The notes under the pieces are model-generated. The model saw nothing but the letters and a program-made list of their open reading frames with translations. It searched no databases and was not told the DNA's origin. 64,000 nt of DNA from an uncultured bacterium (GTDB lineage Bacteria > Patescibacteriota > Saccharimonadia > UBA4664 > SCTI01), in contig CAVRJJ010000001.1 of assembly GCA_963721685.1 (NCBI GenBank), positions 68,555 through 132,554 on the forward strand, in the 5' to 3' direction. Of the stretch, positions 18,184 to 58,083 are shown piece by piece. Numbering within the stretch: the stretch's first letter is position 1; every line of letters begins with the position of its first letter. The position numbers were made by a program, and so were the translations under genes.

Positions 18184-19974
18184 CTACTTCTTAGGGTCGT
18201 GGTAGCGGGTAATGTCGGCGTGATTGGTTGGGTTCGGTGCCGGGGAAGGGGGCGGTACCGAAGGATGCGCGGGTGTTGGAGGCATTATGTTATCCTCCGG
18301 TGATTCAACGTGGTTCAACCGGTCACGGGCACTTTGCAGGGGGTGTTCTTCCAGCGGGGCGGTTTCATAGTGCGGCGCAGGCGCGACCGTGGTGGTACCG
18401 GGTACCACTCCTGGTGTGGGTTTGGGAATGTAAGGGTTTCCGGCACTGGCGAGCGGGCCATTAGTATACATGGTTTCACTTTGCCGGCGGCGCATCATAA
18501 CGATGAATCCGCCCACGATGGCCGCTACTGCCGCGGCCAAAAGGATCCAAAGCCAGGCGCTGCCGCCACTTTTCACCGCTGCAAGGACCAAGGGCTTTTC
18601 AATTTCAAGGGTGCGGATATTTTGCTTTTCATCTACTGAAGAGTTCAGTAAGGAAGCCTTTTTACCGGTTACACTGACTATCTTCATTTTAGCGGCAGCT
18701 TGTTTGCCGGAGGCTTGGAAAACCACCCTGATTGGATTTTTATATTCAGTAATTTCATCGCCGGACTTATTTTTACAGGTGAGCGAGTTGGGTTTAATCA
18801 AACTGTTCTTGGGCGGAATAACGCTGCTTTCTGACACCGCGCAGGACAACTCTTCGCTAAATGTCCCGGCGCTAATCTCGTAGCACACGCTGTTATTGTC
18901 CGAGCATATAGTAGTAGCTTCCTCGGGAACAACATTGGCTTCAAAGTCGTTTGTTGCCAGTTCTGTAGTGGCGTATGGGCTGGCATTGCCGGCCGCATCG
19001 ATGGCCGCCACACGATAGTAGTATTTGGTGGCAAATTCAGTCGAGATGTCATCAAAATTAGCGGTTAAGCTTTCTTGAAGCACTACCCATTCGTCACCTC
19101 CAAGCGAGCGCTCAATTTTGTAGGTTGTCGCGTCACTAACCGTGTCCCAGGTAAGGGATACCACGCCGCTATCTTGGGTTGCTGCAAGGTTCTGTGGAGT
19201 TCCCGGCGGTGTTGTATCTGGTGCGGGCGCTGGTGTTGTTGGCTTAGTGCTGACAAACGGAATAGTGATCCCTCCCAGATTCGGTCTTGGCGTAGGACTA
19301 GGGGTTGGAGCGGGTGAAGGGCCGGGCTGAGGACTGGGGCTCGGGCCAGGAGGAGGCGGCGGCCCAGGTGGAGGAGGCGGCGGCCCAGGTGGAGGAGGCG
19401 GCGGCCCAGGTGGAGGAGGTGGAGGAGGTGGTGGTGGTGGTGGAGGTGGAGGAGGAGGAGGCGTCGGATCATCATACGTCATGTAATAGTAAAAAGGGCC
19501 GTTTGCGCCGCCATTGGTTAGTGTAAACGAATTGCTATTTACCTTATAAGGGGAGCCTGGGTGCTCATAATATCCGCCTTTAATCGCGTAGTAAATATAG
19601 TATTGCGCGGAGGAGCCGGGTGGGTTGGTCCCCGAAACCGGACACGTATAAAATACGGATGCCCCGTCACCATTGGTAATAGAATAGGCTCCATTACCGC
19701 TTGAAGATGACCGGCAATACCATGAAGCGTCTGGACTACCAAGCGAGGAACGTATTCTAATATCAACATTTGGAATTCCGCCACCGTGAACTGGGTCTAC
19801 AACATATAAAATCACATAATTGTTCCAGGCTGTAGGAGCGTTGTTGGCAAACGAATTGTAAACAACATATGTTCCCGTAACTGCCGATACTGCGGCAATA
19901 AGAAAAATCATCGCGGCATTCAAATGATGCAGCGACATGAGCTTGACTGACTTTTTGCTCCGCTTCATATGCAA
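18184..19974 (-). CDS. Type-I membrane cell-surface protein with a polyproline stalk and a fibronectin type III domain
   Basis: N-terminal signal/TM helix; a Tyr/Gly-rich N-terminal domain; a run of 17 Pro followed by GPPPPPP repeats and a PS/PT-rich linker; an FN3-like segment (LTWDTVSDATTYKIERS...YYYRVAAIDAAGNAS); a C-terminal TM (WLWILLAAAVAAIVGGFIVMM) followed by an RRR stop-transfer; a Pro-rich cytoplasmic tail. Confidence 0.7.
   Translation of the reverse strand: MHMKRSKKSVKLMSLHHLNAAMIFLIAAVSAVTGTYVVYNSFANNAPTAWNNYVILYVVDPVHGGGIPNVDIRIRSSLGSPDASWYCRSSSSGNGAYSITNGDGASVFYTCPVSGTNPPGSSAQYYIYYAIKGGYYEHPGSPYKVNSNSFTLTNGGANGPFYYYMTYDDPTPPPPPPPPPPPPPPPPPPGPPPPPPGPPPPPPGPPPPPGPSPSPQPGPSPAPTPSPTPRPNLGGITIPFVSTKPTTPAPAPDTTPPGTPQNLAATQDSGVVSLTWDTVSDATTYKIERSLGGDEWVVLQESLTANFDDISTEFATKYYYRVAAIDAAGNASPYATTELATNDFEANVVPEEATTICSDNNSVCYEISAGTFSEELSCAVSESSVIPPKNSLIKPNSLTCKNKSGDEITEYKNPIRVVFQASGKQAAAKMKIVSVTGKKASLLNSSVDEKQNIRTLEIEKPLVLAAVKSGGSAWLWILLAAAVAAIVGGFIVMMRRRQSETMYTNGPLASAGNPYIPKPTPGVVPGTTTVAPAPHYETAPLEEHPLQSARDRLNHVESPEDNIMPPTPAHPSVPPPSPAPNPTNHADITRYHDPKK
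19352..19418. repeat. 21-bp tandem repeat (about 3 copies of GGCGGCCCAGGTGGAGGAGGC) inside the polyproline coding region
   Basis: Direct reading of 19352-19418. On the minus strand it encodes (PPPPPGP)n. Confidence 0.8.
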
Positions 19975-30209: not shown

Positions 30210-30713
30210 ATGACGCACCACCACAAGAAGGATAAGAAAAAAGGTTTTGTAACCGGCGCATTAATTGGCACGGTTATTGGTGGTGTCGCGGCGCTGCTAT
30301 TTGCCCCTAAGAGCGGCAAAGAAACCCAGGCTGAGATCAAGCAAAAAGCTGGTGGAATAGTAAAGTCGGGAAATGCCAAGCTGACAGAGCTGGGAAGTGA
30401 ATTAGATGGCCGCATCGATAGCCTAAAAGTAGCGGCAAAGGAGCTTCACGGGGAAGCCCGCGAGGAAAGCCAGCGCCTCATAACACGCGCCGAAATCTTG
30501 CGTAATGACCTAGAGGCGGCGGTTGAGAGGTTGGCAAAAACTGGCCGGGATGCTAAAGAAGACGCGGCAATTGATGCCAAGCGCCTAGTTCAGGATGGTC
30601 AAGATGTTATCTCGGAGCTTGAGCGCACTACCAAAAAAATTATGGGATCATTTCGGTCTAAAGTAGGCAAAAAAGACAGCGAAGCCGACAAGCATGACGA
30701 AACCGAACGCTAA
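30210..30713 (+). CDS. YtxH-like (DUF948) membrane-anchored coiled-coil protein
   Basis: N-terminal GFVTGALIGTVIGGVAALLFAPKSGKETQ is the YtxH signature, followed by a coiled coil. Confidence 0.5.
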   Translation: MTHHHKKDKKKGFVTGALIGTVIGGVAALLFAPKSGKETQAEIKQKAGGIVKSGNAKLTELGSELDGRIDSLKVAAKELHGEAREESQRLITRAEILRNDLEAAVERLAKTGRDAKEDAAIDAKRLVQDGQDVISELERTTKKIMGSFRSKVGKKDSEADKHDETER

Positions 30714-30981
30714 GCCTACTAAAGAAGAATACGAAAAGCTTGGAAAGGCGGTCGAAGGGGCGCTAATAAATGATTATATTAACTGGCTGGGTAATACCCG
30801 CCGGCAGGCAATCTCATCTTTTATCCGCGGTATCTTTATGGGCCTTGGCACAGCTATCGGCGCGACACTAGTGGTTGCTCTACTGGTTTGGATCCTGTAC
30901 ATACTTGGCGATATCCCAGGAATTGGAGAATATTTTAAAGGTGCCGGCGACCAAATTGAGAATAAAGTTCCCGGGCAATAA
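30694..30981 (+). CDS. Small membrane protein (DUF5665-like)
   Basis: 95 aa with one TM helix; overlaps the upstream gene. Confidence 0.35.
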   Translation: MTKPNAKPTKEEYEKLGKAVEGALINDYINWLGNTRRQAISSFIRGIFMGLGTAIGATLVVALLVWILYILGDIPGIGEYFKGAGDQIENKVPGQ

Positions 30982-31006: not shown

Positions 31007-31030
31007 GCAGCCCGCCAGATGGCGGGCTGC
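31007..31030 (+). terminator. Perfect 10-bp hairpin GCAGCCCGCC-AGAT-GGCGGGCTGC at the 3' end of the upstream operon and the edge of GC-rich islet A
   Basis: Read directly. Only a weak T tract follows (TAGGTTTC), so it is a possible bidirectional terminator. Confidence 0.4.
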
Positions 31031-31287
31031 TAGGTTTCACGGACTATGTCACTCTCCCAAGCCCACACCGGCCATGCCGTGTTAATGTAGGGGTGAGGTG
31101 GCGGGTTGAGCGGCAGTAGCTTGTACCGCCACTCCAGGCGCTGATCGCCGTGCTCGTCGAGGGGACGCTTTTGTTCGCGCCGTTCAACAACAACACAGGT
31201 GAGTACAAGCTTCGGATCGGCGGGCGACCGAAAGGTCACTCGCGTGGTGCCGTCGGCGCTGTATATCGGTGGCGGGCGGCTGCCCAT
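31030..31287 (-). CDS. Hypothetical protein (85 aa) in GC-rich islet A, second gene of a minus-strand pair
   Basis: Strong SD AAGGAG 4 nt before the ATG (minus strand, 31287), 26 nt downstream of the previous stop. MGSRPPPIYSADGTTRVTFRSPADPKLVLTCVVVERREQ... The longer 173-aa ORF (to 31551) is the same frame but overlaps the other gene, so the SD-supported start is preferred. Confidence 0.45.
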   Translation of the reverse strand: MGSRPPPIYSADGTTRVTFRSPADPKLVLTCVVVERREQKRPLDEHGDQRLEWRYKLLPLNPPPHPYINTAWPVWAWESDIVRET

Positions 31288-31313
31288 AATGCTCCTTGTC
31301 TTGGAGGTGAATG

Positions 31314-31685
31314 CTACGAGATCATCACGGGCGATTCGCCTCGCTTGTGGTTGATTGCGTCGCGAATGGCTTCGAGTTCCTCGTGGTCGAGAACCGCGAA
31401 CGAAGCCCAACTGTCGGCTCCGACCTCGCGTCCGTTGATCAGGTAGCTCTGTCGACGAATCGGCATGCCCTGGTCGTCGTAGTCGACGGTTTCGATCCTC
31501 ACCGCGAACGTGGTCCGAGTACCGTTGGGACGGCGGTAAGGGACGCTGCACGAGTCAATTGCTGGCTTTGCAGCAGCGACGAGCCTCGTGATCAGATCCT
31601 TGGCCTCCACCATAGCGATGAGAGCTCGTGCTCGTCTGGAGGTTCTCCACTTCGATGCTGGCCTTTCTATGGTATTGCCCATCAT
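31314..31685 (-). CDS. Hypothetical protein (124 aa) encoded in GC-rich islet A
   Basis: Minus-strand ATGATG at 31685/31682 preceded by GAAAGTAGGACC (SD-like). The sequence MMGNTIERPASKWRTSRRARALIAMVEAKDL...LDHEELEAIRDAINHKRG matches no family I recognise. GC content is about 60% or more. Confidence 0.45.
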   Translation of the reverse strand: MMGNTIERPASKWRTSRRARALIAMVEAKDLITRLVAAAKPAIDSCSVPYRRPNGTRTTFAVRIETVDYDDQGMPIRRQSYLINGREVGADSWASFAVLDHEELEAIRDAINHKRGESPVMIS

Positions 31686-31822
31686 TGGTGGTCCTACTTT
31701 CGGGTTGTGTGTTAAGAAACCGTTGCTTATATATACCACAAATTGCTTAAAGTTTCAAGTGTTTCCATAATTACGCTAACGCTTGGGCGTGGTATACTAA
31801 GTGAATCGAAAAGGGGGCCTGT

Positions 31823-34800
31823 TTGAGCGAGGATACAGCCGCGACGCTGAAAGCGAACGCGTCAAAATCAAAGTTTGTTCACCTGCATAATCACAGCCAC
31901 TATAGTTTGCTGGACGGCTTGCAAAAGGTTCCTCAAATGCTCGACCAAGCCGCCAAACTCGGTATGGACGCGATTGCCCTTACCGACCACGGAACCCTTT
32001 CCGGAGCGGTGGAGTTTTATAACGTTGCCAAGCAAAAAGGCATTAAACCAATTATCGGGCTTGAGGCCTATGTTTCCCCAAGACGGATGCATGAAAAAAC
32101 TGGCAAAATTGACGCTAACCCCTTCCATTTGATTTTGCTAGCAAAAAATTACGAAGGTTACCAAAACTTAATGCGGATTTCAACCGAAGCGCATTTAAAC
32201 GGCTTTTATTACAAGCCGCGTATCGACCGGCAGCTATTGGAGCTCCACCACGAAGGAATAATTGCCCTGAGCGGCTGTGCTTCTGGAGAGGTTGGGCGCT
32301 CTATCTTAAATGGCGCGATGAAGGAAGCCAGAGAAACGGTGGAGTGGTATAGCGCTACCTTCGGTAACGGCAATTATTATCTTGAACTACAGGATCACGA
32401 GGAGTGGGAGCCGCAAGTTCGGATTAACAAAGGGTTGATTCAGCTCAGTAAAGAAACTGGGGTGCCCTTGGTGGTAACCGCTGACTCGCACTATACCTGT
32501 AAAGATGACCGTGAGGCTCATGAAATCCTGTTGTGCGTTCAAACCGGCAAGACCATTGGAGATACCGATCGCATGGAAATGGATATGGCGCTCTATGTTT
32601 CTAGCCCGGATGACGTTTTAGACCGCTGGAAGCATCTGCCGGAGGCTCTGGAAAACTCGGTAAAAATTGCTAATGCCTGTGACATGGAGCTGCCGCTCGA
32701 CCAAATCTTAATACCCACGTTCTCCACGCCCAAAGGTGAAACCGAGCATGATTATTTGCGTAAACTATGTTGGCAAGGCGCGATGTGGCGTTATGGCGAT
32801 ATTGCCCACGAAGACATGCATCTTCAAACAGAAGATAAAGCCCATAAAGAATTGAGCACGGAGGTGGTTGAACGGCTAGAGTATGAGCTGGGTGTTATTA
32901 GCAAAATGGGGTATGAAGGGTATTTCCTGATTGTGGCCGATTTCATTAACTGGGGTAAGAACCAGGGCATTATTTTTGGTCCGGGGCGGGGAAGCGCCGC
33001 CGGTTCGATTGTGGCCTATGTTATGAATGTGACCGACCTTGATCCCTTAAAATACGATTTGCTGTTTGAGCGGTTTCTCAATCCCGACCGTATTAGCATG
33101 CCGGATATCGATATTGATATCCAGGACACCCGACGGGGGGAGGTAATTGATTATGTTACCGAAAAGTACGGCCAAGACCGGGTGGCCCAAATTATTACCT
33201 TTGGCACCATGGCTGCCCGCAACGCCGTGCGTGACACGGGGAGGGCTTTGGGCATGAGCTACGCCGAAGTTGACGCGATTGCCAAAAAGATTCCCCAGCC
33301 GGTACAGGGGCGCCACATTCCATTGGCAAGCTCTATTAAGGATGACCCCGAACTACGCGGCGAGTATCGGGATAATCCACGGGCTAAAAACCTGATTGAT
33401 GTCGCTATGAAGCTTGAGGGCACTATCCGCTCCAACGGGGTGCACGCTGCCGGGGTAGTGATCGCGGCTGATGATATTGTGAAGTTTACCCCGCTGCAGC
33501 GCGCCCAAAAGGGCGGTATTTGCACACAGTATTCCATGGGGCCGATTGAGCAGCTGGGACTGCTTAAAATGGATTTCTTGGGCCTTTCAAACCTTACGAT
33601 TATTAAGAACACCCTGCGGATTGTGAAGCGGGTCTATGGTAAGGAAATCGATATCGCCGACATTCCCTTAAATGATACTAAAACCTATGAGCTGTTTGCC
33701 CGCGGCGATACCACCGGCCTGTTCCAGTTCGAGTCGGCCGGTATGAAGCGGTACTTGCGCGGACTTAAGCCGACACGGTTTGATGACTTGGTAGCGATGA
33801 ACGCGCTCTACCGGCCTGGCCCGATGCAGTGGATTGAAGATTTTATCGACCGCAAGCATGGCCGCAAGAAAGTGGAATACCTTCATCCCACCATGCAAAC
33901 AGCGCTTGAGCCAACTTACGGAATTATTGTCTATCAAGAGCAGGTAATGCAAATTTCTAAGGAAATGTGTGGTTTTACCGGTGGCCAAGCCGATAGCTTG
34001 CGCAAAGCAGTTGCTAAAAAGAAGCCGGCCGAAATGGCAAAGATGAAAAAAGATTTTATTGATGGCGCCATTAACACATCTAGGGCTGACCGTAAAACGA
34101 TGGAAGACTTTTGGACCCAGCTGGAAGCTTTTGCCGCCTATGCCTTTCCCAAATCCCACTCCGCGTGTTACGCGCTTATAGCGGTACAAACCGCCTATCT
34201 GAAAGCCAACTACCCCAGCGCCTTCATGGCTGCCTTGATGACATCAAACTATGATAATATCGATAAAATTTCACTTGAGATTTCCGAGTGCCGCCGCATG
34301 GGTATTAATGTGTTATCGCCGGATATTAACGAAAGTTTCTTGGAATTTGGCATTGTACCCGACTCTAAAGATATCCGCTTTGGGCTAGCCGCCATTAAAA
34401 ACGTCGGCACGGGCGCGATTAATACCATTTTAGCGGCTCGGGAAGTTGGCGGTCCGTATAAGGATGTTGAGGATTTTGCCAAACGGGTTTCCGCCAGCGA
34501 GTGCAACCGCAAGGTATGGGAGGCTTTAATTAAGTCGGGCGCGATGGATAGCTTTGGCGAACGCTCCCAGCTGCTGCACAATCTGGATAGCATCACCAGC
34601 TACGCCTCAAAAGCCCAAAAGAACGCCCTTTCCGGCCAAATCGATATATTCGGGTCGCTCGGGGAAGATAGCATGCCAGGTTTGCGGCTTGAACTGCCCG
34701 ACCGGGTAATCCCGGCGCGGGAGCAGCTGGGTTGGGAACGTGAACTGCTAGGGTTGTTTCTGTCCCAACATCCGCTGGATGATTATGAGGGCTATTTGGC

Positions 34801-35404
34801 CGATAACACGGTGCCGATTGCCACTATAACCACGCAGCACGAAGGCCGCGCGGCCAAAATTGGGGGCACTATTACCACCGTCCGTAAAATCACTACCAAG
34901 AAAAACGACATGATGGCCTTTGTGGGGCTAGAAGATAAAACCGGCACGCTTGAATTGATTGTATTTCCTAAGGCCTACGAAAAATCTCCCGGGCTATGGG
35001 AGGTCGACAATGTCATTGAGGTAAATGGCAAAATCAACACCAAAGACCGTGAGGGCCGCCAAGACGGTGAGATAAAAGTTATGGTTGATGACGCCAGCAT
35101 GATTGATTACGACAAAGCTAAAAGTCATAAACGTATCAAACCACTTCCGGTAAAACCGCCTACCGAGGATGAAGTTGTCGCGGCAGAAGCCGACCCGTTA
35201 ACGATCCGCCTCCAGTCAATTGCAAATACGACTATCTTAACTGAGATAAAGCAACTGCTTGAGTCCAGCCCCGGGGCTAACCCGGTTAATTTAGTGATGC
35301 CCGGCAATCCCCCAAAGACGATCCGATTGCCGTTTACGGTAACTATTACACCTGAACTGAACCTACAACTACAAGAGGTTGTTAAGGCCGCAGCTCAAAC
35401 CTAG
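31823..35404 (+). CDS. dnaE: DNA polymerase III alpha subunit DnaE (TTG start)
   Basis: PHP domain (HLHNHSHYSLLDG), polymerase core (GPGRGSAAGS, PDIDIDI), and a C-terminal OB fold. 1193 aa. Confidence 0.95.
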   Translation: MSEDTAATLKANASKSKFVHLHNHSHYSLLDGLQKVPQMLDQAAKLGMDAIALTDHGTLSGAVEFYNVAKQKGIKPIIGLEAYVSPRRMHEKTGKIDANPFHLILLAKNYEGYQNLMRISTEAHLNGFYYKPRIDRQLLELHHEGIIALSGCASGEVGRSILNGAMKEARETVEWYSATFGNGNYYLELQDHEEWEPQVRINKGLIQLSKETGVPLVVTADSHYTCKDDREAHEILLCVQTGKTIGDTDRMEMDMALYVSSPDDVLDRWKHLPEALENSVKIANACDMELPLDQILIPTFSTPKGETEHDYLRKLCWQGAMWRYGDIAHEDMHLQTEDKAHKELSTEVVERLEYELGVISKMGYEGYFLIVADFINWGKNQGIIFGPGRGSAAGSIVAYVMNVTDLDPLKYDLLFERFLNPDRISMPDIDIDIQDTRRGEVIDYVTEKYGQDRVAQIITFGTMAARNAVRDTGRALGMSYAEVDAIAKKIPQPVQGRHIPLASSIKDDPELRGEYRDNPRAKNLIDVAMKLEGTIRSNGVHAAGVVIAADDIVKFTPLQRAQKGGICTQYSMGPIEQLGLLKMDFLGLSNLTIIKNTLRIVKRVYGKEIDIADIPLNDTKTYELFARGDTTGLFQFESAGMKRYLRGLKPTRFDDLVAMNALYRPGPMQWIEDFIDRKHGRKKVEYLHPTMQTALEPTYGIIVYQEQVMQISKEMCGFTGGQADSLRKAVAKKKPAEMAKMKKDFIDGAINTSRADRKTMEDFWTQLEAFAAYAFPKSHSACYALIAVQTAYLKANYPSAFMAALMTSNYDNIDKISLEISECRRMGINVLSPDINESFLEFGIVPDSKDIRFGLAAIKNVGTGAINTILAAREVGGPYKDVEDFAKRVSASECNRKVWEALIKSGAMDSFGERSQLLHNLDSITSYASKAQKNALSGQIDIFGSLGEDSMPGLRLELPDRVIPAREQLGWERELLGLFLSQHPLDDYEGYLADNTVPIATITTQHEGRAAKIGGTITTVRKITTKKNDMMAFVGLEDKTGTLELIVFPKAYEKSPGLWEVDNVIEVNGKINTKDREGRQDGEIKVMVDDASMIDYDKAKSHKRIKPLPVKPPTEDEVVAAEADPLTIRLQSIANTTILTEIKQLLESSPGANPVNLVMPGNPPKTIRLPFTVTITPELNLQLQEVVKAAAQT

Positions 35405-35482
35405 TTTCCCGTTAATGGGAATGTAATTATTACAAATCATGGTATAGTATCTTTGCTTCAGCAAACCGACCGAAGGACAACC

Positions 35483-35743
35483 ATGGAAGACCCTTACCAG
35501 GTTCTAGGTGTTCCTGCATCGGCAAGCGAGGAGGACATCAAAAGAGCGTACCGTGTACTCGCGCGGCTGCATCACCCGGACCAAAATCCAGGGAGGGGTG
35601 ACACCGACTTTAAGGCGGCTACCGCGGCCTATGAAGAGCTGAGCGATCCCGAAAAGCGACGCCAGTATGACGCAAAACAAAATCGTCCTGATTTCGCGGA
35701 GATGGTTGGCCGTTATTTCGACGCCTTTTTCTCCGCGAGGTAA
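35483..35743 (+). CDS. Stand-alone J-domain (DnaJ-like) protein
   Basis: DPYQVLGV...EEDIKRAYRVLARLHHPDQN...AYEELSD: J-domain with HPD tripeptide. SD GAAGGA 6 nt upstream of the ATG at 35483. Confidence 0.7.
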   Translation: MEDPYQVLGVPASASEEDIKRAYRVLARLHHPDQNPGRGDTDFKAATAAYEELSDPEKRRQYDAKQNRPDFAEMVGRYFDAFFSAR

Positions 35744-35791
35744 CCAGTTTCTGCACAAAGGCAAACCCACGAAACGAAAGTAGGTGGACAA

Positions 35792-35932
35792 GTGCGATGC
35801 AAGTTCCGGTTCTGGCTGCAGGAAGAGCGCGGAGATGCTGGCACGGTGATGATGGTCGTGCTGTTTCTGGTGATCCTGGCGCTGGTGGTCCTCGGGTTCC
35901 TCTTCCTCCCACCCCTGCCTCATGCGGGTTGA
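35792..35932 (+). CDS. Small hydrophobic peptide (46 aa from GTG; 27 aa if ATG at 35849) in GC-rich islet B
   Basis: SD AGGTGG 4 nt before the GTG. Encodes ...MMVVLFLVILALVVLGFLFLPPLPHAG, a single TM helix. The stop TGA is 1 nt before the next ATG. Confidence 0.4.
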   Translation: MRCKFRFWLQEERGDAGTVMMVVLFLVILALVVLGFLFLPPLPHAG

Positions 35933-35933
35933 C

Positions 35934-36062
35934 ATGTCGAGGTTCAGGCGCGGGAAGGTACGCAGTCTCATCTTCGACGTAGTCGTTGCGCTGTTGTTGC
36001 TCGCAGGGCTCATCGCCTTCTGCGTGGCGATGGCGTACTTCGACCGCAACCCGATATGGTGA
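35934..36062 (+). CDS. Small membrane peptide (42 aa) translationally coupled to the previous peptide
   Basis: MSRFRRGKVRSLIFDVVVALLLLAGLIAFCVAMAYFDRNPIW: basic N-terminus plus one TM helix. GC-rich codons (CTG/GCG/CGC). Confidence 0.4.
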   Translation: MSRFRRGKVRSLIFDVVVALLLLAGLIAFCVAMAYFDRNPIW

Positions 36063-36187
36063 AGCCGAAGCTGGCTCACCAGTGCCTTCTCCGGGCGCTA
36101 CTCTGTCAATCGACCGAGAGCGCTTTGGAGGGGGCGTTCTTAGTTATTATTGATCTGCCCATCAGATTATGCTACATTACTTGGGTT

Positions 36188-36820
36188 ATGCATCCAGCAA
36201 TCACCCAGCTTGAATCTACCCATCGCAAAACCGCTGTCGCCAAAGTCCAGTCCGGCGATACCGTGCGTGTGCACCAGCGCATTCGTGAGGGCGCCAAACA
36301 GCGGATCCAGATTTTTGAAGGCGTGGTGATCCGTACCCATCGGCTGGATAGCCTTTCCGCTACCGTTACTGTGCGCCGGATTGCCAGCGGTGTCGGCGTT
36401 GAAAAAACCTATTTATTGCACTCCCCTAATATCGATAAGGTTGAAATTTTGCGCCGTGCCAAAGTGCGCCGCAACTTTCTAAGTTATCTGCGCGGCCGGC
36501 GCGGCAAATCTGCCCGGCTCCAAGAGATGGGCTTTGATAAAGCGGCCGCTAACGCTTCCGATAACAGTCTCTTGGTCCCAGGAGATGATGCCCCCGGTAC
36601 CGCCGCCGCCGCCGCGGTAACAGAAATTGAAGCTGATGAAAACCAGGATGAGCTAAACCAGACTGACGTTTCGTTGGATGAGGTAATCAAGGAAGAGAAC
36701 AAAGCAGCCGGGGCTGATGATGCCAGCCCGAGTGATGGCGGCACCGACGCCGGAGACGAATCGGAAATGGAGCGCGAGGAAGCCGAGCAAAAGATTGATA
36801 AACCCGGCAAAGACAGCTAA
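36188..36820 (+). CDS. rplS: 50S ribosomal protein L19 with an acidic C-terminal extension of about 95 aa
   Basis: MHPAITQLESTHRK...VQSGDTVRVH...QIFEGVVIRT...RRIASGVGVEKTYLLHSPNI...RRAKVRRNFLSYLRGRRGKSARLQE aligns with L19. The tail ...DENQDELNQTD...DESEMEREEAEQ is extra. The upstream ATG at 36056 is unlikely to be the start. Confidence 0.85.
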   Translation: MHPAITQLESTHRKTAVAKVQSGDTVRVHQRIREGAKQRIQIFEGVVIRTHRLDSLSATVTVRRIASGVGVEKTYLLHSPNIDKVEILRRAKVRRNFLSYLRGRRGKSARLQEMGFDKAAANASDNSLLVPGDDAPGTAAAAAVTEIEADENQDELNQTDVSLDEVIKEENKAAGADDASPSDGGTDAGDESEMEREEAEQKIDKPGKDS

Positions 36821-36835
36821 TTTACTTATTAACTT

Positions 36836-37507
36836 TTGATTAACAAGGTCCCGCTCGCGCGGGACTTTTGGTATGCTGGGCATATGAAGATGGTTACGCC
36901 TAGCCGCGAATTGGAAAAGATGCTGTGGCAGCAAGGATATAGCTGGGTGGTTGGGATGGACGAGGTTGGCAGGGGGTGTTTGGCGGGTCCTTTAACGGTT
37001 GCTGCGGTGGTTTTGCCGCCAACTTACAGCGGAGGCGGTATTCGTGACTCCAAGTGGCTTACGTCCAAGCAGCGCATGCTACTAGCCGGGCAAATTCGCA
37101 AAGATGCCGTGGCTATTGGTGTTGGCTGGGCCTCGCCCGGCGAAATTGACGAAAATGGCTTAACACGTGCCCTCGGCTTGGCAGGGGGAAGGGCATTGGC
37201 TGGCGTTCCATCTGATGCCGCTATTATACTCGATGGAAACCACAACTACTTAGATGATGCTTATGCCGTTACCATGCAAGTCAAAGCCGACGAGTCGTGC
37301 CTGGCGGCCGCGGCCGCGTCGATTATCGCCAAGGTTGCGCGCGACCGCTACATGGAGCTGCTTCACCGGTTACATCCGTCTTACGGCTTTAGTACCAACC
37401 GGGGCTACGGATCGGTAACGCATTTAGCCACCCTTCTTGCCCAAGGTCCTTCTCCCTTTCACCGCCGAAGCTTCAACCCGTTAAAGGCTTCATTACTTGT
37501 CGGTTAA
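36836..37507 (+). CDS. rnhB: Ribonuclease HII
   Basis: VVGMDEVGRGCLAGPLTVAAVVL (DEVGRG active site) and a C-terminal GYGS...H pattern. The start may be the internal M at about 36884. Confidence 0.8.
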   Translation: MINKVPLARDFWYAGHMKMVTPSRELEKMLWQQGYSWVVGMDEVGRGCLAGPLTVAAVVLPPTYSGGGIRDSKWLTSKQRMLLAGQIRKDAVAIGVGWASPGEIDENGLTRALGLAGGRALAGVPSDAAIILDGNHNYLDDAYAVTMQVKADESCLAAAAASIIAKVARDRYMELLHRLHPSYGFSTNRGYGSVTHLATLLAQGPSPFHRRSFNPLKASLLVG

Positions 37508-57588: not shown

Positions 57589-57651
57589 ATTGCAGTTCGA
57601 GGTGAACTTTTTCGCCTTGGGCTCAGTCCCACTCAACTACCGGGGGTACCT

Positions 57652-58083
57652 ATGGGAAAAGCATCGGCTCTTGACCAACGCGGATCCAACTGGGAGATCA
57701 CGAACGGAGGCCTCACGCTGGTCCTCAACGACTGCTTCGTGTTCACACGTAGCCCACGCCTTCGTGGGGTAGGCAACACCAAGGGCTCAGTTCTGAGCAG
57801 GCTCAACGCCCAGCTGCACGCGCTCATCGCGCGCGGCATGTGGGGGCAGGTTGACTTCATGCTCGGATCAAGCCAGCTGGTAGCCCAGTTGTGGATGCGC
57901 TGGGACCTCCAGTCGCGCCATCTGCAGGTAAGTGAAACCGTCCGTCTTCCGGGCCACCCGGTTCCGCTTGTCTGCGTGCGTTTCGAGCAGTTGGCCGAAC
58001 CGGGCTGTTTGCTCCTCGCTCCGGGAGTCGGGCAAGGTGATGAGCTCGCGTTCATCAACTCCCTGGGCTACCGCATCAGCTGA
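57652..58083 (+). CDS. Hypothetical protein (143 aa) in GC-rich islet D
   Basis: MGKASALDQRGSNWEITNGGLTLVLNDCFVF...AQLWMRWDLQSRHLQ...GDELAFINSLGYRIS. About 60% or more GC with CTG/GGC/CGC-biased codons. No family recognised. Confidence 0.45.
   Translation: MGKASALDQRGSNWEITNGGLTLVLNDCFVFTRSPRLRGVGNTKGSVLSRLNAQLHALIARGMWGQVDFMLGSSQLVAQLWMRWDLQSRHLQVSETVRLPGHPVPLVCVRFEQLAEPGCLLLAPGVGQGDELAFINSLGYRIS

Follow-up and report, generated by a model that had tools for sequence, protein, structure and literature searches.

Bacterial membrane proteins of fewer than 50 amino acids (aa), with one transmembrane (TM) helix, short termini and a narrow distribution, include UgtL/UgtS, MgrB, AcrZ, CydX and KdpF, of which UgtL/UgtS are a lineage-restricted, bicistronic pair (PMC12648545). 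Type I toxins (Hok, Ldr, TisB, Fst, Ibs, ShoB and ZorO) are likewise small, hydrophobic one-TM peptides, often encoded on acquired DNA. Among membrane J-proteins, DjlA of E. coli has an N-terminal TM helix, and DjlB and DjlC carry a tail anchor (PMC8215388). The subject of the present analysis is a GC-rich islet at positions 35745-36140 of a 64,000-nucleotide (nt) stretch of a Saccharimonadia genome (Candidate Phyla Radiation, CPR; TM7), referred to below as the window, with a G+C content of 49.7%. The islet proper (about 35780-36140) is best read as a compact cassette of two genes, foreign in composition, for orphan membrane peptides, here named pep1 and pep2; it lies between a stand-alone J-domain gene and rplS. 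The best explanation, given about even confidence, is that pep1 and pep2 are small single-pass membrane proteins, translationally coupled and gained by horizontal transfer; their orientation is probably N-in/C-out, and their genes are probably transcribed together with the J-domain gene.

In common with the small membrane proteins named above, pep1 and pep2 are shorter than 50 aa with one TM helix and short termini, have a narrow distribution, and are encoded beside, and probably co-transcribed with, another gene; pep2, moreover, was missed by a gene finder. They differ from those proteins in being two dissimilar peptides in tandem, joined by a stop/start junction and written in strongly foreign codon usage. 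No sequence relationship to them was found in Pfam or NCBIfam, and no membrane partner was identified nearby. The kind of gene is known (PMC12648545); the new case, from a CPR genome, is an orphan one whose foreign signature is unusually clear.

The original prediction for this DNA, made from its letters, had described a 46-aa peptide with a GTG start and a Shine-Dalgarno (SD) sequence AGGTGG, followed by a 42-aa peptide, and all of these coordinates were confirmed. The features of the islet and of the gene before it are as follows.

35483-35743, plus strand: stand-alone J-domain gene, 86 aa, HPD motif, Pfam PF00226 (DnaJ) E = 5.8e-22 over residues 3-63
48-nt spacer between the J-domain gene and pep1, containing AGGTGG
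35782-35787, plus strand: SD-like AGGTGG, read from the sequence, 4 nt 5' of the pep1 GTG
35792-35932, plus strand: pep1, MRCKFRFWLQEERGDAGTVMMVVLFLVILALVVLGFLFLPPLPHAG, 46 aa, single TM, GTG start, TGA stop (35930-35932)
35934-36062, plus strand: pep2, MSRFRRGKVRSLIFDVVVALLLLAGLIAFCVAMAYFDRNPIW, 42 aa, single TM, ATG start, TGA stop (36060-36062)
36084-36135, plus strand: GC-rich hairpin of 52 nt followed by a U-rich tail, GUUCUUAGUUAUUAUU (to about 36152); probable intrinsic terminator and right edge of the islet

Coding potential and foreign codon usage

Three-base periodicity was detected by permutation in pep1 (p = 0.0004) and in pep2 (p < 0.0002) and was absent from the 125-nt spacer 3' of pep2 (p = 0.46). 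Its phase, with a T-rich second and a GC-rich third position, shifts by +1 at 35920-35935, the junction of the two open reading frames (ORFs). Because of the periodicity and of this shift at the junction, both ORFs look like genuine coding sequence, present or recent, each in its own frame; expression today is not implied. G+C at codon positions 1, 2 and 3 is 0.72, 0.36 and 0.77 in pep1 and 0.51, 0.42 and 0.84 in pep2, where the third position (GC3) exceeds the first (Fisher p = 0.002), an excess for which hydrophobicity does not account. The length of an ORF is uninformative at the G+C content of the islet, which is overlapped by spurious ORFs of 61, 97 and 191 aa. These competing frames (191 and 97 aa on the minus strand, 61 aa on the plus strand) were rejected, as they either overlap the Pfam-confirmed J-domain gene or show inverted periodicity (GC3 0.39). 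Recoding of UGA was also considered and set aside: code 11 leaves the large genes intact, and reading on past the pep1 stop yields nonsense. No paralogue of either peptide was found in the window.

Each peptide was confirmed to carry one TM helix, with a best 19-residue Kyte-Doolittle stretch of 3.36 for pep1 and 2.95 for pep2. The basic N-terminus that had been ascribed to both is evident in pep2 (net charge +4) and weak in pep1 (net +1, from four basic and three acidic residues). The TGA of pep1 precedes the ATG of pep2 by 1 nt, as had been claimed, and this TGAcATG junction is compatible with the translational coupling that had been proposed from the tandem arrangement. An alternative ATG for pep2 at 35922 would give 46 aa and an 11-nt overlap with pep1. 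The AGGTGG assigned to pep1 also lies 9 nt 5' of an out-of-frame ATG at 35797, which opens the 61-aa ORF. Among public records, pep1 is entered as a gene in NCBI, ENA and Logan (P0001).

The same junction could be read as a lesion. Upstream of its ATG the pep2 frame has no stop as far back as about 35871, so one indel within 35871-35929 would join pep1 and pep2 into a single ORF, and the junction contains C-runs (cctcccacccc). It is nevertheless improbable that a real frameshift, near the C-runs at 35905-35920, has divided a single gene for a two-TM hairpin protein of about 90 aa. A proper ATG stands 1 nt past the stop, the fused sequence matched no family, and the N-terminus and the would-be loop are both positively charged, a pattern more in keeping with two N-in peptides than with a hairpin. 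In a separate assembly, by Logan, of run ERR12037361, dnaE, the J-domain gene, pep1 and the start of rplS occupy matching relative positions, and that contig holds an identical 46-aa pep1, stop included. This agreement argues against an indel introduced by the assembler, with the limits that both assemblies may share the same reads and that it is silent on a real mutation. The gene caller skipped pep2 on the Logan contig.

The original prediction had called the stretch strongly GC-rich. The excursion is real but modest, at 59.3% against 49.7% for the window (z = 2.0, within the top 2.2% of equal-sized windows and seventh among the islets of the window), so that 'strongly' was an overstatement. 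That the composition is foreign to the flanks proved correct, and is clearest at the level of codons. In-frame GC3 is 0.77 for pep1 and 0.84 for pep2, compared with 0.52 ± 0.06 (maximum 0.62) for 35 long ORFs; among 11,892 in-frame 46-codon windows of native genes, 0.08% reach the value of pep1 and 0% that of pep2. Phenylalanine is encoded by TTC and TTT in a ratio of 8:1 in the peptides, whereas the genome favours TTT (322:122), and CTG or CTC serves for 13 of their 15 leucine codons. Both peptides end in TGA, a stop used by 3 of 33 long genes. A GC3 of at least 0.75 was found in 14 of the 598 window ORFs of 30 aa or more, and only the adjacent pep1 and pep2 combine it with a strong TM segment.

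Native genes for small membrane proteins a few kb upstream have GC3 values of 0.41-0.54, favour TTT and end in TAA or TAG, and the coding of a TM helix in itself therefore does not explain the GC3 bias. The J-domain gene has a near-native GC3 of 0.56, and GC3 jumps at the start of pep1. The foreign segment is accordingly placed at about 35780-36140, which is less than the whole of the insertion described below.

The insertion between dnaE and rplS

The flanks of the islet contain the following features.

31823-35404, plus strand: dnaE, upstream neighbour of the insertion
35406-35421: small hairpin 3' of dnaE
35405-36149, plus strand: lineage-specific insertion from the dnaE stop to the rplS promoter, holding the J-domain gene and the GC-rich islet
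35440-35448, plus strand: extended -10 promoter-like motif TGGTATAGT 5' of the J-domain gene, from a pattern scan; putative promoter
36150-36178, plus strand: predicted rplS promoter TTGATC-17 nt-(TGc)TACATT, from conservation and consensus; native right flank
36188-36820, plus strand: rplS (Pfam L19, E = 2e-36), with rnhB and yraN downstream

The nearest species-representative genomes are a 'Candidatus Saccharimonadia' metagenome-assembled genome (L001) and a mislabelled bin, DATIHE010000006.1 (L002). They alone share the order dnaE-rplS-rnhB with the window, at identities of 57% (L001) and 62% (L002) for rplS and 54-56% for the C-terminus of dnaE. There rplS comes straight after dnaE, across a gap of 119 nt in L001 and 42 nt in L002, and tblastn of this locus gave no J-domain or peptide match. 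Since dnaE abuts the rplS promoter in the two relatives, the J-domain gene and the peptides form an insertion of about 745 nt specific to the window lineage. The adjacency of the J-domain gene and rplS, proposed earlier as a point to check in relatives, did not hold there, as both lack the J-domain gene; the ancestral neighbours are dnaE and rplS. The peptides and their DNA alike are missing from every relative available. The flanks of the insertion carry no mobile-element signature, only short chance direct and inverted repeats, and no integron attC core sites were seen at the hairpin on inspection by eye. Neither rplS (in three start variants) nor yraN led, by exact look-up, to a sister strain on record.

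The motif TGnTAnnnT occurs directly 5' of dnaE (31790), the J-domain gene (35440), rplS (36170) and rnhB (36869). A scan with the consensus pattern found no further copy on either strand between 35449 and 36169, and a consensus scan of 35300-36900 found no sigma-70-like site on either strand. Downstream of pep2, the fold of 36063-36155 has a predicted energy of -40.2 kcal/mol (z = -3.56; 0 of 200 shuffles were as stable), and a terminator scan also listed its hairpin (36116-36141). The 48-nt spacer between the J-domain gene and pep1 has no stable structure (z = +0.7). As the islet has no promoter-like site of its own on either strand, pep1 and pep2 are probably co-transcribed with the J-domain gene, the simplest model being one transcript that ends before the rplS promoter. 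There was no case for a structured RNA: folding of the whole islet gave z values of -1.4 and -1.5 for the two strands, and a search of 35380-36250 against Rfam, both at the gathering thresholds and at E <= 10, returned no RNA family.

Several observations concern the native side of the junction. The leader of rplS is about 9 nt long and has no SD sequence, and its promoter is conserved as TTGATC-18-TGcTAAGGT in L001 and TTGCTC-17-TGtTAGCAT in L002, at the same distance from the ATG (36150-36190 in the window, 3950-3997 in L001 and 3953-3997 in L002). The placement of extended -10 motifs directly before several genes suggests that short-leader or leaderless mRNAs are widespread in this genome. 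The rplS gene, which spans 36188-36820 in the window, 3995-4606 in L001 and 3995-4666 in L002, encodes an L19 protein with a strongly acidic C-terminal extension of about 95 residues whose length and character are kept in both relatives. Its frame is open upstream to 36056, and the start called on the Logan contig (TTG, 36125) is 21 codons too early, because the N-termini of the relatives (MDAIRQLE and MQAIQELE) align with MHPAITQLE. The L002 record is titled 'Candidatus Nanoarchaeia archaeon', yet it carries a bacterial dnaE-rplS-rnhB block with 52-62% protein identity to the window; the contig belongs to Saccharimonadia and was mislabelled or mis-binned.

Comparison with toxins, pilins and membrane J-proteins

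Type I toxins, entericidin-like pairs and two-peptide bacteriocins had been offered in the original prediction as analogies for the islet. With 46 and 42 aa and one TM helix each, the peptides are within the size and helix description of type I toxins, which their foreign origin also suits (PMC12648545). A function of one or both as a type I toxin or as a membrane-damaging peptide of bacteriocin or entericidin type is highly improbable all the same. Searches of Pfam, NCBIfam, PHROGs and PADLOC (E <= 1) matched no toxin, entericidin or bacteriocin family. Type I loci are further distinguished from the islet by an antisense or divergent promoter and a long structured leader: here the consensus scans found no such promoter on the opposite strand to drive an antisense antitoxin, and no structured 5' leader hides the SD sequence. 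Moreover, the locus encodes two dissimilar peptides, in sense orientation downstream of a J-protein gene; in an apparent operon of this kind a toxin would be expressed constitutively.

The remaining two analogies found no support either. Lipoproteins of the entericidin EcnA/EcnB type were rejected on the absence of a lipobox and of a Pfam entericidin match: pep1 has a cysteine at residue 3 only, and the sole cysteine of pep2 lies in LIAFC, where phenylalanine at -1 is incompatible with a lipobox. A class IIb bacteriocin was rejected since neither peptide has a double-glycine (GG) leader or a GxxxG motif, and the 17 proteins scanned within about 12 kb on either side are housekeeping or unassigned, with no transporter, C39 peptidase or immunity protein among them.

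A relationship of pep1 to Flp or type IVb prepilins would rest on a charged leader, a glycine and a hydrophobic helix of about 20 residues, together with a weak match to the Pfam family PF16982 (Flp1_like; E = 9e-4, 19.0 bits, residues 8-34). The best match in PDB, which was not significant, is an archaeal Pilin_N protein (E = 0.74). The Pfam score is below the curated gathering cutoff of 33.5, however, and G17 is followed by TVMMVV, with no glutamate at +5 and no G/xxxxE(Y/F) motif. The mature part would have only about 29 aa, which is too short, and Pfam found no pilus-assembly family in the 17 neighbouring proteins, about 12 kb to either side. Matches that cover only a TM helix often reflect composition, and this one, confined to the hydrophobic helix, is treated as compositional; that pep1 is a pilin is barely conceivable.

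The J-domain gene, pep1 and rplS share one reading frame. The first two are separated by a TAA (35741-35743) and 16 stop-free codons, and read-through would give a tail-anchored J-protein of 149 aa, its J-domain N-terminal and its TM helix lying 7 residues short of the C-terminus. It could be supposed that pep1 is the severed C-terminal anchor of such a protein, cut from it by the nonsense codon or by a split. The common frame with its open spacer has a chance of about 15% by our own estimate, and is probably a coincidence. The rise in GC3 from about 0.47-0.56 to 0.77 at the start of pep1 indicates different histories for the two genes, pep1 has an SD sequence and a start of its own, and the fused form was not seen in any relative, none of those available carrying the J-domain gene or pep1. 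A severed anchor is on these grounds very improbable. The artificial fusions pep1+pep2 and J+pep1 brought no added family match.

A J-domain with little else, followed in frame by a TM helix of C-terminal type, nonetheless recalls DjlA, DjlB and DjlC and the notion that Hsp70 is brought to the membrane. Unlike in DjlB and DjlC, J-domain and TM helix are here separate ORFs (TAA plus 16 codons) of differing codon usage. The J-protein scored below all NCBIfam curated cutoffs, and its sole match to a DjlA model reached 30 bits against a cutoff of 162. It is conceivable, if quite improbable, that the J-protein and both TM peptides work as one Hsp70 co-chaperone module of three parts, tethered to the membrane, in which the tail-anchored DjlB/DjlC design is divided over separate proteins. 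The ultra-small episymbiont would then have captured host-type (high-GC) anchors behind, and in frame with, its J-domain gene, and DnaK would be recruited to the membrane or to the interface with the host.

Orphan status, remnant or working cassette

Neither peptide has a homologue in the collections searched. Against 5.8 billion clustered proteins, pep1 matched only itself and pep2 nothing; phmmer of pep1 against 1.84 billion representatives returned pep1 and one repetitive junk protein, whose score came from many weak repeats. The J-protein matched only itself (P0002) among the 5.8 billion proteins. In JGI metagenomes it gave generic J-domain matches, of which the three near-full-length ones inspected were full-length DnaJ genes, and tblastn of the fetched JGI loci revealed no peptide-like sequence. 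Searches of plasmids with the peptides (tblastn) and of phages and plasmids with the islet (blastn) gave nothing, or chance matches of 36-44 nt. Scans of viral contigs with degenerate patterns gave one chance match, on the wrong strand within a portal gene. In PDB no match to pep1 was significant, and in Pfam, NCBIfam, PHROGs and PADLOC the peptides gave nothing beyond the nominal Flp1_like match of pep1.

That both peptides are total orphans is what would be expected if the islet were dead cargo, that is, a non-functional remnant of acquired high-GC DNA in which the ORFs are leftovers, such as N-terminal signal-anchor pieces of larger foreign genes, or arose by chance. Their codon usage has not been ameliorated, chance ORFs are common at this G+C content, as the overlapping ORFs of 61, 97 and 191 aa attest, and the gene finder passed over pep2. 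Two more GC-rich stretches of the window (31010-31740 and 57633-58083) likewise hold ambiguous ORFs without a family match. The islet nevertheless contains a full expression unit within about 360 nt (SD sequence, start, TM helix, junction, TM helix and terminator), which would be rare in a random fragment; the peptides have the layout of genuine small membrane proteins (positive N-terminus, TM helix, short tail), and the phase of the periodicity fits each ORF. A dead remnant is the main rival explanation and, while unlikely, is the one to be taken most seriously, as all that disfavours it is that 360 nt contain a complete expression unit.

Several further points weigh against a working, acquired pair. 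By our own estimate a 46-codon ORF arises by chance at 60% G+C in about 20% of cases, and longer spurious ORFs overlap the islet. Periodicity and a foreign codon dialect would survive in a recently inactivated fragment. The SD sequence of pep1 is only 4 nt from its GTG, and pep2, the peptide missed on the Logan contig, has no SD sequence of its own. The searches gave no homologue from which purifying selection could be shown or a donor named. The GC3 of the J-domain gene is native-like, which indicates that this gene did not arrive in the same recent acquisition event; its co-transcription with the peptides and any functional link to the J-protein are proposed from missing signals and adjacency.

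These points notwithstanding, the marks of a genuine small membrane-protein gene are present: periodicity, an SD sequence for pep1, the TGAcATG junction for pep2, a TM helix and N-terminal charge. An acquired and coupled pair remains the preferred reading. The cassette would have come by horizontal transfer from a high-GC donor, for which an actinobacterial host of the episymbiont lineage is a natural candidate. It would be transcribed from the extended -10 promoter at 35440 jointly with the J-domain gene; pep1 would be translated from its own SD sequence and GTG, and pep2 by termination and reinitiation at TGAcATG, so that the two would be made in roughly equal amounts. Insertion of both in the membrane is predicted to be N-in/C-out, and there they may form a small hetero-oligomeric component, for example a subunit with an accessory, regulatory or anchoring role. 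The J-protein, which lacks a client domain, and hence DnaK, may also be docked at the membrane by them. The class of small membrane regulators, which the original prediction had also named, is the most reasonable assignment, though only by default.

The window contains other GC-rich stretches. The most GC-rich 271-nt stretch (19197-19467; 0.68) is a poly-proline/PPPPPPG repeat tract inside a 596-aa minus-strand ORF (18184-19974) whose product is probably a surface-exposed, membrane-anchored protein. This peak, which ranks above the islet, has an ordinary compositional cause. Another stretch, 31010-31740 (0.61-0.635 in 271-nt windows), lies between the gene for a small membrane protein of family DUF5665 (30694-30981) and dnaE, and is probably what the original prediction had listed as islet A. 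It is covered by overlapping ORFs of 141 and 173 aa on the minus strand and 134 aa on the plus strand. The two minus-strand ORFs had no Pfam match, the plus-strand ORF being outside the scan, and the 141-aa ORF shows codon periodicity (p = 0.0005); the stretch may be another foreign orphan gene beside dnaE. A third stretch, 57633-58083 (0.62), holds mutually antisense ORFs of 143 aa (plus) and 141 aa (minus) with TGA stops and GC3 values of 0.74 and 0.71, respectively, a foreign-looking signature like that of the islet. The 143-aa ORF had no Pfam match, and its minus-strand partner was outside the scan.

The finding neither opens nor closes any larger question. If the cassette is real, it would add two further orphan small membrane proteins to a class that annotation under-counts, as the omission of pep2 by the gene caller illustrates, and it would provide a possible membrane anchor for a minimal J-protein. 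In a Saccharimonadia genome every retained gene is under pressure, and the islet's codon dialect suggests that it was captured recently from a high-GC organism. The conserved dnaE-rplS junction would then offer a small, clean case of host-type DNA domesticated by an episymbiont.

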